This document shows positions 13,391-17,299 of a DNA stretch of 32,000 nt, one piece after another. The stretch comes from Methanoregula sp. Its GTDB lineage: Archaea; Halobacteriota; Methanomicrobia; Methanomicrobiales; Methanospirillaceae. The notes below the pieces were generated by a model that was not told the origin of the DNA, did not search any database, and was given only the letters and a program-made list of their open reading frames with translations. The stretch spans positions 42,004 through 74,003 of the forward strand of contig NZ_PMZU01000026.1 of NCBI RefSeq assembly GCF_003170075.1, in the 5' to 3' direction. How positions within the stretch are numbered: the first letter of the stretch is position 1; each line of letters opens with the position of its first letter. A program made the position numbers and the translations under genes.

Positions 13391-13777
13391 TTATTCTACA
13401 AATAATCTGCCCTGTTCGGTCAGCGAGTAGATGATCCAGTTGCCGTGATACTCGCCTTCAATCAGGCCGCTCTCTTTCAAAATATTCAGGTGATAGGAAA
13501 GTTTTGAGCCGGCAAGGTGCATGAACCGGTTAATAACGCAGACACAGAGCGGCTGGTCGCGGAGCAGAGAGAGGATAGTGAGCCGCAGCGGGTCGGAGAG
13601 TGCATGGTATCTCCTGCTCTGCTCAATGAGATCCTTTTCTTCCGGAATATGCCGGGAGAGAAATTCAACTCCTCCCAGATGTTCAATGGCCTCAAGGCCC
13701 ACATCGGGATTCATGGCCGCTCTCTTTTTGGGTCTGGGTTTTCGCGGGCCGCAACAGGAACTTTTTGATAATTTCAT
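13391..13777 (-). CDS. arsR: ArsR-family winged-helix repressor divergent from hgcA
   Basis: RRYHALSDPLRLTILSLLRDQPLCVCVINRFMHLAGSKLSYHLNILKESGLIEGEYHGNWIIYSLTEQG, ArsR fold with an ELCVC-like metal-site context (LCVC). Start taken at MKLSKSSCCG. Confidence 0.88.
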   Translation of the reverse strand: MKLSKSSCCGPRKPRPKKRAAMNPDVGLEAIEHLGGVEFLSRHIPEEKDLIEQSRRYHALSDPLRLTILSLLRDQPLCVCVINRFMHLAGSKLSYHLNILKESGLIEGEYHGNWIIYSLTEQGRLFVE

Positions 13778-13795
13778 TTCAAAATAATATGAAAT
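13776..13795. promoter_or_regulatory. Operator-like dyad 1 (ATTTCA-N8-TGAAAT) overlapping the arsR start codon
   Basis: ATTTCA at 13776-13781 and TGAAAT at 13790-13795; dyad arms related to site 2. Confidence 0.5.
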
Positions 13796-13800
13796 GCCAA

Positions 13801-13810
13801 CGTATATACG
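13801..13810 (+). promoter_or_regulatory. Candidate archaeal TATA element (CGTATATACG palindrome) in the divergent arsR-hgcA spacer
   Basis: Symmetric TATA-like sequence roughly midway between the two divergent starts. Confidence 0.4.
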
Positions 13811-13827
13811 CTTCACTTGCAGACAAT

Positions 13828-13847
13828 ATTTCAACAAAATTTGAAAT
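13828..13847. promoter_or_regulatory. Operator-like dyad 2 (ATTTCAA-N6-TTGAAAT) immediately upstream of hgcA
   Basis: Perfect 7-bp inverted arms, 13828-13834 and 13841-13847; resembles ArsR/SmtB operator geometry. Confidence 0.6.
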
Positions 13848-13860
13848 GCCGTGAAGTACT

Positions 13861-14985
13861 ATGACGAACATACCATCCGGCCCTAATCACAAAGGAACTC
13901 CGTTGAGGAGTGAACCATCCATAGAAAACACCATGCAATCCTGCTGCGGGAGTGTTCAAAAAGAGCCCGCATCCGCATGTTTCTGCACCGGAAAAACCGG
14001 CCCGGCACCGGGAATCCGTACCACCACATCCATAATCACATCTGCCGACAGGCGGGATCATTTCCTTGCCCGGTGGGGCGTCAACCGGATGGGCCGTATC
14101 GTTACGCCGGGTCTGTACCGGCTCGGCAGCCCAACCACAGATTCACCCGTCTTTGCGTCCGCTAACTACACACTCAGCTTTGACGCACTCCGTTCAGCGC
14201 TTGCCGGCACTGATGCATGGATCCTGGTGCTGGATACCAAGGGGATCAATGTCTGGTGCGCTGCCGGGAAAGGGACGTTTGGCACCGGTGAACTGATCCG
14301 GCGTATTGCGGTGACCGGGCTTTCCGAAATTGTCTCGCACCGCAGGATCATCCTCCCCCAGCTTTCGGCATCCGGGGTTTCGGCACATGACGTCGCCCAT
14401 TGGTCCGGTTTCTCGGTCGAGTACGGCCCGGTCCGGGCCCGGGATCTCCCGGCATACCTTCCCACCCGCACGGCAACGCAGGAGATGCGGACCGTCCGGT
14501 TCCCGCTTGCTGACCGGCTCCTCCTCTGCCCCATGGAACTTGTGCACGCACTCCTGCCCATGATTGCAGTAGCAGTCGTGTTGTACTTCCTTGCCGGCCC
14601 GGTTGCGGGGCTCGCAGCAATTGCCGCCGTGCTCGCAGGGACCGTGCTCTTCCCGGCGCTGCTCCCGTATCTCCCGACGCATGATTTCTCCATGAAGGGC
14701 TTCATCCTCGGGGCCATTGTCACGATCCCGTTTGCAGCAGCGTTTGCCCGGGCACCCGGCCTCTCCGGCATCGCACAGGTCATCGCGGTGCTCGTCCCGT
14801 TCCTCATCATCCCGGCCGTTGTCGCATACCTCGCCCTCAACTTCACCGGCTCGACCACGTTCACCTCCCGGACGGGCGTGAAAAAAGAGATCTTCCGGTA
14901 CGTGCCGACAATGGTGCTCATGGCAGGCGCCGGGACAATCCTCGGGATCGCGCTTGGCGTCCTCCGGCTCATGGGGGTGACCTGA
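13861..14985 (+). CDS. hgcA: Mercury methylation corrinoid protein HgcA
   Basis: Diagnostic motif GINVWCAAGKGTFGTGELI, then HRRIILPQLSASGVSAHDV and SGFSVEYGPVRARDLPAYL, plus a C-terminal multi-TM domain. Directly followed by hgcB. The start is uncertain (alternative ATG at 13933). Confidence 0.96.
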   Translation: MTNIPSGPNHKGTPLRSEPSIENTMQSCCGSVQKEPASACFCTGKTGPAPGIRTTTSIITSADRRDHFLARWGVNRMGRIVTPGLYRLGSPTTDSPVFASANYTLSFDALRSALAGTDAWILVLDTKGINVWCAAGKGTFGTGELIRRIAVTGLSEIVSHRRIILPQLSASGVSAHDVAHWSGFSVEYGPVRARDLPAYLPTRTATQEMRTVRFPLADRLLLCPMELVHALLPMIAVAVVLYFLAGPVAGLAAIAAVLAGTVLFPALLPYLPTHDFSMKGFILGAIVTIPFAAAFARAPGLSGIAQVIAVLVPFLIIPAVVAYLALNFTGSTTFTSRTGVKKEIFRYVPTMVLMAGAGTILGIALGVLRLMGVT

Positions 14986-15323
14986 TGTTTAACGCTTACG
15001 CAGAAAACACGCTCAAGTATTTCCCGGAGAAATGCATCAACTGCCGGCGCTGCACGCAGGTCTGCCCTCACGGAGTTTTTACTGAAGGGAAAAACCGGGC
15101 AGCACTCGTTAATCCCCGGGCCTGCATGGAGTGCGGGGCCTGTGCGAAAAACTGCCCGGTGCAGGCAATTGAGGTACAGAGCGGCGTCGGATGCGCATGG
15201 GCCATGATCAGCGCGGCACTCAGGGGAAAGGACATGGACAGTGGCGAATGCAGCTGCGGGGGGCCGGAGAGTTCCTGTTGCGGCCAGACAAAAGAAGACC
15301 CATGTTCTTACGGGGCAGAATAG
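14985..15323 (+). CDS. hgcB: Mercury methylation ferredoxin HgcB
   Basis: 2x[4Fe-4S] pattern CINCRRCTQVCPHGVF and CMECGACAKNCPVQAIEVQSGVGCAWAM, with Cys-rich C-terminal tail CSCGGPESSCCG. 1-nt overlap with hgcA. Confidence 0.95.
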   Translation: MFNAYAENTLKYFPEKCINCRRCTQVCPHGVFTEGKNRAALVNPRACMECGACAKNCPVQAIEVQSGVGCAWAMISAALRGKDMDSGECSCGGPESSCCGQTKEDPCSYGAE

Positions 15324-15334
15324 AGGAATCAGCA

Positions 15335-15778
15335 ATGAAGGCAACCACAAAATCTGATGATGCAGTGGCAAGTTACATGAGCAGGTTCACCTGCTCTGCA
15401 GCAGTGTTTTCTGCCTTTTCCGAAGATCTTGGCCTAAATCCCGATACGGCAAAAAAGATCGCATGCGGATTCGGTGCAGGGATATCGAAGACCGGCAATA
15501 TGTGCGGTGCGGTGTCCGGGGCAATCATGGTTATCGGGTTGAAATACGGAAAGACCGAAGCGGATGACGAAGCCGCAACCGAGAAGACACGGGCCCTCGT
15601 CCGGCAGTTCATTCACGAGTTTATAGCAAAGAACGGCTCGGTCAACTGTACGGATCTGCTCGGACTTAACATTAGCAACCCCGAAGAATTTGCACAGGCA
15701 CGCGATAATAAACTGTTTGTCACGAAATGCCCGGAACTTGTGCGGGACGCCACGGAAATCCTTGAAAAAATCCTTTGA
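15335..15778 (+). CDS. C_GCAxxG_C_C-type putative redox-active protein
   Basis: FTCSAAVFSAFSEDLGLNPDTAKKIACGFGAGISKTGNMCGAVSGAIMVIGLKYG, family layout; C-terminal conserved Cys residues. Confidence 0.8.
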   Translation: MKATTKSDDAVASYMSRFTCSAAVFSAFSEDLGLNPDTAKKIACGFGAGISKTGNMCGAVSGAIMVIGLKYGKTEADDEAATEKTRALVRQFIHEFIAKNGSVNCTDLLGLNISNPEEFAQARDNKLFVTKCPELVRDATEILEKIL

Positions 15779-15800
15779 ATGTACAAATAGGTGAACGCTA

Positions 15801-16874
15801 ATGGATACGCAAGTAAAACGACTTTCATTCCTTGACCGGTACCTTACGCTCTGGATCTTCCTTGCGATGGCGGTCGGGATAGCAATCGGGTACTTTTCAC
15901 CTACAGTACCGACGCTGATCACCGGCCTTTCAGTAGGGACCACGTCAATCCCGATTGCCATCGGGCTTATCCTCATGATGTACCCGCCGTTGGCAAAAGT
16001 ACGTTATGAGGAACTCAGCAACGTGTTCCGGGATAAGAAGGCACTCGGGCTTTCTCTGTTCCTGACCTGGCTCGTGGGACCTTTCCTGATGTTTGCCCTT
16101 GCCGTCCTCTTCCTCCACGACCAGCCGCTGTACATGTATGGCCTGATCCTCGTCGGGATTGCCCCCTGCATCGCAATGGTCATTGTCTGGATAGACCTTG
16201 CCAAAGGCGATCGCGAGTTCAGTGCGACGATGGTGGGGTTGAATTCCATCTTCCAGGTCCTCTTCTATTCGGTCTATGCATACCTCCTCATCACCGTGCT
16301 CCCGAAAATCATCGGCATTGCCGAAGGGACAGTGGTGGATGTATCCATGGTCGAAATTGCCGTCACTGTCTTTACGTATCTTGGCATCCCGTTTATCGCG
16401 GGAGTTGTTACCCGGTTCACCCTCATCAAGATAAAATCAAAGGAATGGTACGAACAAAAATTCATCAGGAAGATTTCACCGGTCACTCTCATTGCGCTGC
16501 TCTTTACCATTATCGTGATGTTCTCGCTCAAGGGCGGATACATCGTTACCGTCCCGCTCGATGTCGTCAGAGTCGCGATCCCGCTGGTCTGTTACTTCCT
16601 GATTATGTTCTCTCTCGGTTTTTACCTGGCATTTAAACTGGGAATCAATTATCCGCGGACTGCAAGCCTCGCATTCACCGCAGCGTCAAACAATTTCGAG
16701 CTTGCCATCGCGGTCGCCATCGGTGTCTTCGGCATCGGATCTGCTGTTGCGTTCGCCACCGTTATCGGACCTCTCGTGGAAGTGCCGGTGATGATCGGCC
16801 TCGTGAACGTGACGCTCTATCTCAAAGAGAAATGGTATAAAGGCGGCAGTCCATCATCAGAATGTAGAACATGA
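15801..16874 (+). CDS. acr3: ACR3-family arsenite efflux transporter
   Basis: [27 protein letters not shown] ... [22 protein letters not shown] ... [19 protein letters not shown], strong ACR3 motifs. Confidence 0.95.
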
Positions 16875-17299
16875 ACAGACCCCGCATCCTTTTTGTCTGC
16901 ACCGCAAACGCGGCCCGCTCCCAGATGGCGGAGGGCTACCTCCGGGCAAAGTACGGCGACCGGTACGAGGTCTTCTCGGCCGGCTTCCGCCCCGCCGGCC
17001 GGGTGAGCAGCCGGGCAATTATCGCGATGAAAGAGATCGGGATCGACATCTCCGGCCACCAACCAAAGTCGCTCGATACCTTCAACGGTGTTACACTCGA
17101 TCTCGCGGTCACGCTCTGCGATAACGCCCACGCGGTCTGCCCGGTCGTGCCGTCAGCGAAAAAAACGATCCATCACAGGTTTCCCGATCCCCACCTCACC
17201 CCGGGCACCGGTGAGGAGATCCTTGGCGGGTACCGGAGTGTCCGGGACGCCATCTGTGCGTGGATCGATGCCACGTTTGCCCACGGGTTGCCGGGATAA
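16871..17299 (+). CDS. arsC: Arsenate reductase, low-molecular-weight phosphatase type
   Basis: [34 protein letters not shown]...[14 protein letters not shown]-loop [12 protein letters not shown] overlap with acr3. Confidence 0.9.

Follow-up and report, generated by a model that had tools for sequence, protein, structure and literature searches.

A 32,000-nucleotide stretch of Methanoregula sp. DNA (contig NZ_PMZU01000026.1, positions 42,004 to 74,003; hereafter the window) carries the mercury-methylation gene pair hgcAB at the head of what appears to be an arsenic-resistance operon. In this divergent cassette, arsR reads leftward, whereas hgcA, hgcB, a gene of the C_GCAxxG_C_C family, acr3 and arsC read rightward. 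The reading favored here, which we hold to be reasonably probable, is that the five rightward genes form one polycistronic unit repressed by ArsR and probably released by As(III). A preliminary description of the window had already proposed a single ArsR-governed unit, and the support now available for it is comparative, consisting of tight junctions, operator-like palindromes and a recurring cassette; on these grounds, the predicted co-transcription under an ArsR repressor is well supported. With hgcAB occupying the leading positions of an ars operon that is otherwise canonical, the arsenic link is as direct as gene order allows. The native function and regulation of hgcAB bear on the prediction of methylmercury production in habitats rich in Methanoregula: wetlands, peat and rice paddies.

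The genes and candidate regulatory elements of the cassette are as follows.

arsR, 13391..13777, minus strand: ArsR/SmtB winged-helix repressor of 128 amino acids (Pfam HTH_5 PF01022, 47 bits; NCBIfam HTH_metalloreg NF033788, 70.4 bits against 55)
Box 1, 13775..13796: perfect palindrome CATTTCA-N8-TGAAATG whose left arm holds the arsR start codon; candidate ArsR operator
Candidate core promoter, 13797..13809: CCAACG, resembling a B recognition element (BRE), and a palindromic TATA box, GTATATAC at 13802-13809; the two divergent genes would share this promoter or have overlapping ones
Box 2, 13828..13848: ATTTCA-N8-TGAAAT(G), ending 12 nt before the hgcA ATG
hgcA, 13861..14985, plus strand: corrinoid protein of mercury methylation (NF040863 equivalog, 434.8 bits against a cut-off of 275)
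hgcB, 14985..15323, plus strand: 2[4Fe-4S] ferredoxin partner (NF040864, 118.6 bits against 99)
C_GCAxxG_C_C gene, 15335..15778, plus strand: 147 amino acids with five Cys (PF09719, 116.5 bits against 27; TIGR01909, 102.6 against 47.4)
acr3, 15801..16874, plus strand: arsenite efflux permease (TIGR00832, 432.8 bits against 282.8)
arsC, 16871..17299, plus strand: probably thioredoxin-coupled arsenate reductase of the low-molecular-weight phosphatase type (Pfam LMWPc, 67.7 bits)

The four junctions of the rightward genes (hgcA/hgcB, hgcB/C_GCAxxG, C_GCAxxG/acr3 and acr3/arsC) measure -1, 11, 22 and -4 nt, in agreement with the short same-strand gaps and the 1-nt hgcA/hgcB overlap given in the preliminary description. 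These distances leave no room for separate promoters, and such tight junctions suggest translational coupling. The hgcA/hgcB overlap reads TGATG and the acr3/arsC overlap ATGA; the C_GCAxxG gene start is preceded by AGGAA, a ribosome-binding-like motif, and acr3 by an AGGTGA motif. No run of five or more T occurs in any cassette junction. Relatives for comparison came from an HgcA scan of one genome per GTDB species, which gave the 80 closest loci (58 archaeal and 22 bacterial), and from exact look-ups of HgcA homologues, which added L092 and L093-95; gene content was read by tblastn with the window proteins and simple open reading frame (ORF) logic, with ArsR homologues detected at E 1e-5 or better, so that more distant ones would be missed. 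Across 85 loci, the median hgcA/hgcB gap is -1 nt. Estimated median gaps in related loci are 12 nt from hgcB to C_GCAxxG, 20 nt from C_GCAxxG to acr3 and 15 nt from acr3 to arsC, and the hgcB/arsC gap is -1 nt, a stop/start overlap, in eight of nine related loci.

The 83-nt spacer (13778-13860) that separates hgcA from the divergent arsR, both reported in the preliminary description, was confirmed, and alignment of homologues backs the ATG at 13777 as the arsR start. Box 1 and Box 2 lie 52 bp apart from center to center, about five helical turns. With one mismatch allowed, ATTTCA-N8-TGAAAT has only two matches in the whole window, both in the spacer, against 0.04 expected from shuffled sequence. 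Archaeal TATA boxes are centered near -26 from the transcription start, and it is from this general promoter architecture that the BRE/TATA element was assigned and that the two starts are predicted, that of hgcA falling within Box 2 at about 13832 and that of arsR within Box 1 at about 13779. The arsR mRNA is probably leaderless. Scans of 13300-17800 for sigma-70 promoters and hairpin terminators found about as many sites as in shuffled sequence (promoters, 3 against 3.2; terminators, 6 against 4.6), with models unsuited to an archaeon.

The Box 1-TATA-Box 2 module recurs in identical register at 14 loci, which amount to 12 distinct sequences; their HgcA proteins share only 64-92% identity, and the positions separating the elements are variable. 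Its invariant columns are ATTTCAA..TA.T.TGAAAT, TATA and TTCAA.AAA.TTGAA.TG; the gTATAta core is kept in all 12 distinct modules with varying flanking bases, and the 52-bp spacing is the same in every module-bearing locus, the module also being found in the hgcAB-free operons L096-L098. As judged from these alignments, the pattern is that of a classical phylogenetic footprint. The module adjoins this CVC-type ArsR in all but one of the loci that bear it. Wherever an arsR of this subfamily occurs, hgcAB-free ars operons included, its start codon is overlapped by Box 1, which argues that the boxes belong to ArsR and that ArsR is a genuine ars-operon regulator; the palindrome pair would then be the operators of this ArsR, with binding predicted. 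The first cistron after Box 2 is hgcA in the window, L092, L093-95, L001, L003 and L004, a DGC-domain gene in L013, L022, L083 and L086, and a cupin gene in L034 and L066. At L034 (9571-9641), the module stands intact upstream of cupin-hgcAB-arsC and the divergent arsR is gone, which implies that either an ArsR from another locus acts on the site in trans or the site is in decay. Together with the defined junctions, the two 20-bp candidate operators offer concrete and cheap targets for a test.

The only cysteines of the window ArsR are an N-terminal pair, Cys8 and Cys9, and Cys78 and Cys80, which form the CVC of QPLCVCVI in helix alpha-3. QPLCVCVI is invariant across the 12-13 homologues aligned, and the N-terminal CC pair is kept in the nine closest of 12. 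In the proposed mechanism, Box 1 and Box 2, which would share one face of the DNA, would each be occupied by an ArsR dimer, the two dimers bracketing the BRE/TATA element. Box 1 would occlude the arsR start codon and likely transcription start, and Box 2 the predicted start of hgcA, so that assembly of TBP, TFB and RNA polymerase would be blocked in both directions and ArsR would therefore also repress its own gene. ArsR would leave the DNA once a thiophilic effector, most probably As(III), is bound by Cys78/Cys80 and Cys8/Cys9. As(III) is favored because the cargo genes acr3 and arsC point to arsenic: ArsC would reduce As(V), Acr3 would export As(III), and the C_GCAxxG thiol protein would work with Acr3. 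HgcAB would be made simultaneously from one mRNA with the C_GCAxxG protein, Acr3 and ArsC, and transcription of hgcAB would therefore be expected to respond to arsenic.

The protein assignments on which this scheme depends are those of the preliminary description; the families that it gave for HgcA, HgcB, the C_GCAxxG protein, ACR3 and ArsC were borne out by profile scores, motifs and an alignment to B. subtilis ArsC (1JL3), and all six genes lie within the coordinates that it stated. HgcA carries the cap-helix motif GINVWCAAGKGTFGT (NVWCAAGK) at residues 130-137, with Cys133 as the Co-ligating residue, and its C-terminal half contains four long hydrophobic segments across residues 219-371 according to a plain Kyte-Doolittle hydropathy scan, which is not a topology predictor. 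The N-terminal extension of HgcA (residues 1-80; 13861-14100) is Cys-rich, with Cys28, Cys29, Cys40 and Cys42 (SCCGS...ACFC); its length varies among relatives, and tblastn matches often start at residues 20-60. HgcB has two CX2CX2CX3C motifs (residues 17 and 47), Cys70 and a vicinal C-terminal pair, Cys98-Cys99. Scores of HgcA and HgcB above both family cut-offs mark them as an Hg(II)-methylation pair, whose methylating activity is predicted; in the literature searched, no Hg methylation assay of a Methanoregula isolate was found. Acr3 contains Cys123 in the motif GIAPCIAMV. ArsC aligns with 1JL3 at E 5.7e-24 with conserved equivalents of Cys10, Cys82, Cys89 and Asp105, keeping Cys10, Cys83, Cys90 and the FPDP aspartate.

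Some alternative gene readings were rejected. The ORF lister had placed the arsR start at TTG 13837; however, homologues all begin at the ATG inside Box 1 (ATG 13777), and the stretch upstream of that ATG is conserved as DNA motifs rather than as protein. A 195-amino-acid C_GCAxxG reading from 15191 overlaps hgcB, whereas homologues measure 144-148 amino acids and ATG 15335 yields 147. A 401-amino-acid antisense ORF (14166-15371) was regarded as a GC-rich artefact lying opposite hgcA and hgcB, both of which score above curated cut-offs, with no family-library search made of the ORF itself. Rfam and tRNA scans of the whole window gave no match.

The cassette recurs beyond the window. The full six-gene version is also present in L004 (Methanoregulaceae) and L093-95, with HgcA 79-81% identical, and occurs in at least three genome contexts: in L093-95 (HgcA 79% identical) it lies between a PAS histidine kinase and UvrA, in the window it is flanked by a GntP permease and malic enzyme, and in L004 no GntP or malic enzyme homologue was seen within 10 kb. 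In L092, a metagenome contig from ENA, HgcA is 92% identical and the window-like flanks are 98-100% identical in nucleotides. The best matches to the window HgcA bear the name Methanoregula, in line with the assignment of the host. Partial versions are also found. L013 and L022 carry hgcAB-C_GCAxxG-acr3, L025 hgcAB-C_GCAxxG and L040 hgcAB-acr3; L003 has arsR with only hgcAB after the boxes; and the order hgcAB-arsC-malic enzyme is shared by eight Methanoregula or Methanomicrobiales loci. In L038 (Methanospirillum) and L039 (Syntrophobacterales), ars genes lie upstream of hgcAB. L001 reads arsR, hgcAB, a 25-amino-acid remnant of the acr3 3' end, arsC, malic enzyme and fprA. The remnant (L001 11432-11506) comprises the last 25 acr3 codons, 88% identical to the window, between hgcB and arsC, with C_GCAxxG and the remaining acr3 missing; as a deletion scar, it indicates that acr3, or a fuller cassette, was ancestral in the L001 lineage. 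L002 has lost arsR and reads hgcAB-acr3, a 4.5-kb insertion and arsC. This insertion (12560-17070), which holds a class-I S-adenosylmethionine methyltransferase, a DGC-domain gene, a second CVC-type ArsR and membrane proteins, is further evidence of the region as a swap-shop for metalloid genes.

The comparison of archaeal hgcAB neighborhoods called for in the preliminary description was run on the 58 archaeal loci, with the outer parts (5-10 kb) of the same loci as baseline. An ars-type gene lies within 2.5 kb of hgcA in 25 of the 58, and the density of such genes near hgcAB is 1.50 per 10 kb against 0.14 at 5-10 kb, an approximately 11-fold enrichment. Of 39 nearby ars-type matches, 31 are on the hgcA strand. 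The adjacency of hgcAB and ars genes exceeds chance.

A different picture emerged for the C_GCAxxG protein, which the preliminary description had put forward as a candidate accessory factor of Hg methylation. A metagenome scan with the window protein as query yielded 11 loci, among which acr3 and/or arsC lies directly downstream in seven and hgcAB is present in two, and further homologue look-ups led to L096, L097 and L098. Every further C_GCAxxG contig examined is hgcAB-free and contains acr3. In L083 and L086, arsR is followed by DGC-DGC-arsP-C_GCAxxG-acr3-like-arsC, with the same boxes and hgcAB absent; in the hgcAB-free Methanoregula loci L096-L098, which also have the same boxes, the order after arsR is DGC-cupin-DGC-arsP-C_GCAxxG-acr3, ending with arsC and a B12-binding protein in L096 and with an MtrA-like protein in L097 and L098. 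Their ArsR proteins are 54-59% identical to that of the window in L096-L098 and 47-51% in L083/L086. L096 and L009 belong to the same 2.9-Mb genome, in which hgcAB-arsC lies about 160 kb from the hgcAB-free ars operon. The proposed methylation role is thus not borne out, as homologues sit directly upstream of acr3 in operons devoid of hgcAB. Because the gene travels with acr3 in such operons, genomic context assigns the C_GCAxxG protein as an ars-operon accessory and putative acr3 partner, not an hgc one. The literature search found no published arsenic-resistance function for the C_GCAxxG_C_C family and no described archaeal DGC-arsP-C_GCAxxG-acr3 operon. From gene order, the window cassette is best described as an hgcAB-free Methanoregula ars operon with hgcAB leading in place of DGC-cupin-DGC-arsP, and its regulator appears also to drive hgcAB-free ars operons in the same genus.

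Whether or not hgcAB is present, ArsR-governed ars operons repeatedly encode, internally or at their end, corrinoid-type proteins that are MtrA-like (PF04208) or B12-binding (PF02310) (L022 8887-9567; L066 8878-9570; L097 7592-8290; L098 6458-6928; L096 8288-9370). The pattern is suggestive of a broader connection, in Methanoregulaceae, of arsenic handling with corrinoid methyl transfer. One and the same ArsR and box module precedes operons holding HgcAB, an MtrA-like protein or a B12-binding protein, together with ArsP (a methylarsenite exporter), Acr3 and ArsC. A speculative and rather doubtful extension is that HgcAB may be one of several interchangeable corrinoid modules of methanogen ars operons. 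Its native task would be to methylate As(III), or a different thiophilic metalloid, prior to export, and Hg would be methylated only as a side reaction.

Several observations count against a single, As(III)-released unit. The window ArsR lacks a counterpart of Cys37, the third Cys in the As(III) site of R773, and the best solved relative of this protein is a CadC-like Cd/Pb sensor, the Listeria protein Lmo1102 (9T6T), in which ELCVCDI aligns with PLCVCVI; both points weaken the case for As(III) as the effector. A CadC-like (alpha-3N) or archaeal MerR-like sensor might instead respond to a different soft metal, Hg(II), Cd(II) or Pb(II), such that Hg(II) itself would induce hgcAB. This is unlikely in our estimation. 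The four-Cys layout, an N-terminal pair plus the alpha-3 CVC, does resemble the CadC alpha-3N site, S. aureus CadC (1U2W) is also among the best solved relatives, and ArsR-family proteins act as Hg(II) sensors in Sulfolobus and Streptomyces. However, all cargo of known substrate points to arsenic (acr3, arsC and, in the hgcAB-free operons, arsP), no mer, cad or czc genes occur in any of these loci, and a CC pair with one further Cys also makes up the As(III) site of C. glutamicum ArsR. Also on the debit side, ArsC reaches 112.7 bits with TIGR02691, under the NCBIfam equivalog cut-off of 174.3, and the assignment of promoter and transcription starts derives solely from general archaeal promoter geometry. 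Transcript level need not translate into activity either: in P. mercurii ND132, hgcAB transcripts reportedly rose with arsenic but failed to predict the methylation rate. The statement in the preliminary description that arsenic would control Hg methylation if the five genes formed one responsive unit was therefore too strong, since such control does not follow from transcriptional control alone.

The unity of the operon can be questioned as well. An AT-rich ATAATAAA (15705-15712) in the 3' end of C_GCAxxG is a possible internal acr3-arsC promoter, a second TATA-like AT-rich stretch lies at 15765-15771, and no clear terminator directly follows arsC, the first T6 and T7 runs being 320-390 nt downstream. 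The genes could thus be neighbors rather than one unit, with hgcAB transcribed from the divergent promoter, possibly constitutively, and C_GCAxxG-acr3-arsC also or mainly from the internal one, in which case hgcAB would not share in the arsenic induction of the efflux genes. The modularity of the cassette (C_GCAxxG and most of acr3 are gone from L001 and arsR from L002, and hgcAB alone follows the boxes in L003) is compatible with this arrangement, as is the recombination tract that runs from the 3' half of hgcA through hgcB relative to the near-identical L092. It is nonetheless improbable, given that the boxes stand most directly over hgcAB (Box 2 is 12 nt upstream of hgcA, not of the ars genes), that junctions of 11 and 22 nt follow, with the hgcB/arsC stop/start overlap in eight of nine other loci, and that an internal promoter would supplement read-through from upstream rather than replace it. 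The loci were picked by HgcA similarity and are hence phylogenetically related, and the ArsR-type loci are mutually closest HgcA relatives, so the comparative support may trace to one ancestral event and its conservation. The adjacency might even be a recombination by-product in a variable region, devoid of selective meaning, as the recombination and deletion scars (L092 versus the window; the 25-amino-acid acr3 remnant in L001) and the differing, commoner archaeal arrangement would allow. This we consider highly improbable in view of the 11-fold local enrichment of ars genes, the hgcB/arsC overlap, the conserved operators and at least six hgcAB-ars architectures, in Methanoregula, Methanolinea, Methanospirillum, Methanocorpusculum, Methanosarcina and one Syntrophobacterales bacterium. 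The ArsR-repressed polycistronic unit remains the reading adopted below.

The commoner archaeal arrangement involves another kind of regulator. A 2023 study reported that archaeal hgcAB is mostly preceded by an AbrB/MazE/PrlF-type gene, with arsR only in Methanosphaerula (PMC10349881). Among 55 archaeal loci with enough sequence upstream of hgcA, an AbrB/MazE-like gene lies directly upstream in 34, ArsR within 700 bp in four and neither in 17; these counts (34 AbrB/MazE against four ArsR) agree with the published proportions and add a Methanoregula ArsR class. The cassette is thus a second archaeal ArsR type, beside that of Methanosphaerula, and the published view of AbrB/MazE-type rather than ArsR control of archaeal hgcAB is qualified, as both types exist. 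The AbrB/MazE-type protein, the 'toxin-antitoxin gene' of PMC10349881, has 97-118 amino acids, is encoded co-directionally upstream of hgcA and shows a Cys-rich N-terminus (CGC.PV) and an internal ICC motif; examples are L009 9642-9935, L006 9640-9933, L016 9691-9984, L022 9614-9970 and L066 9701-9997. Its cysteines suggest that the protein could sense metals and be a regulator in its own right. The gene coexists with the ArsR and box module, which lies further upstream, in L022 and L066.

Other features of the window lie in or around the cassette. Between window 14262-15346 and L092 6400-8490, nucleotide identity drops from 98-100%, sustained over about 12 kb, to 82-93%, and to 66% at the junction; the low-identity part covers the 3' half of hgcA and hgcB, and L092 has an extra ~800 bp at the junction with a C_GCAxxG-like fragment and a DUF166 gene. 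The divergence has the appearance of a tract of recent recombination within the cassette. The intergenic stretch of 450 nt that separates arsC from the malic enzyme gene (17300-17749) is 84% identical to L001 and 97% to L092, a conservation that looks similar to that of nearby coding sequence when judged against protein identities only. It gave no Rfam match, and its 106-amino-acid ORF no Pfam match; a 53-nt GC-rich piece (17484-17536) recurs inverted in L001 (18917-18966). The gap could be a long 3'/5' untranslated region, a small RNA or a repeat element. Upstream of the cassette (1497-11705) lies a cobalt-uptake/cobalamin cluster (cbiM, cbiQ, an ABC ATPase, corrin methylases, cbiG, cbiC, cbiD and cbiA), followed by a GntP-family permease gene (12075-13364) between cluster and cassette. 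The cobalamin cluster adjoins a gene for a corrinoid enzyme, yet the cassette exists in L093-95 and L004 without these neighbors.

The preliminary description implied more novelty than the literature allows, as hgcAB-ars co-location and ArsR control of hgcAB were published between 2020 and 2025. hgcAB flanked by acr3, arsC, arsM and arsR was described in 2020 (McDaniel et al., PMC7438021, Fig. 6; bioRxiv 10.1101/2020.02.03.933291), and lake metatranscriptomes associate the presence of arsR with lower hgcA/gyrB transcript ratios, with acr3 and arsC nearby (Peterson et al. 2025, PMC11984097). According to the accessible portions of these reports (PMC7438021; PMC11984097, Fig. 4), their metagenome loci resemble the window in placing hgcAB right beside genes for arsenite efflux and arsenate reduction and in having an ArsR-like gene close by; they are mostly bacterial, from selected genomes, and the same portions report no operators, junction analysis, C_GCAxxG gene or Methanoregula. 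In P. mercurii ND132, hgcAB is under the control of ArsR2 and responds to arsenic, which raised hgcAB transcripts (Gionfriddo et al. 2023, bioRxiv 10.1101/2022.10.17.512643). The likeness is that an arsenic-linked ArsR/SmtB gene adjoins hgcA and controls hgcAB transcription, a control that in the window is predicted. In ND132, arsR2 is upstream of, co-directional and co-transcribed with hgcAB, whereas the window arsR is divergent on the opposite strand; no other ars gene is co-located there, whereas acr3 and arsC directly follow hgcAB in the window; and the unusual four-Cys motif of ArsR2, compared by its published description only, is Cys47/49/86/88 rather than Cys8, 9, 78 and 80. The ND132 host is a bacterium, that of the window an archaeon.

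Also close in make-up are the hgcAB-free Methanoregula ars operons (L083, L086 and L096-L098), which share the ArsR subfamily, the 52-bp box module and a C_GCAxxG-acr3(-arsC) tail with gaps of ~20 nt, and differ in a head of DGC-cupin-DGC-arsP (DGC-DGC-arsP in L083/L086) rather than hgcA-hgcB. With the classical ars operons of E. coli R773, S. aureus pI258 and the B. subtilis skin element, the window shares a winged helix-turn-helix repressor with an alpha-3 CVC, an efflux pump and, probably, a thioredoxin-type ArsC; their autoregulation and palindromic operator overlapping the promoter have predicted counterparts here. Unlike those operons, the window has an archaeal BRE/TATA element instead of a sigma-70 promoter, two candidate operators flanking the TATA box, a divergent regulator that is not the first cistron, no third R773 Cys and hgcAB in the lead. 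The gain is incremental, because ArsR control and ars co-location are already in the literature, and the new detail lies in the candidate operators, the tight junctions and the reassignment of the C_GCAxxG protein. The locus is thus no new kind of system but a clear archaeal example of a mercury-arsenic link for which bacterial cases had been published before.

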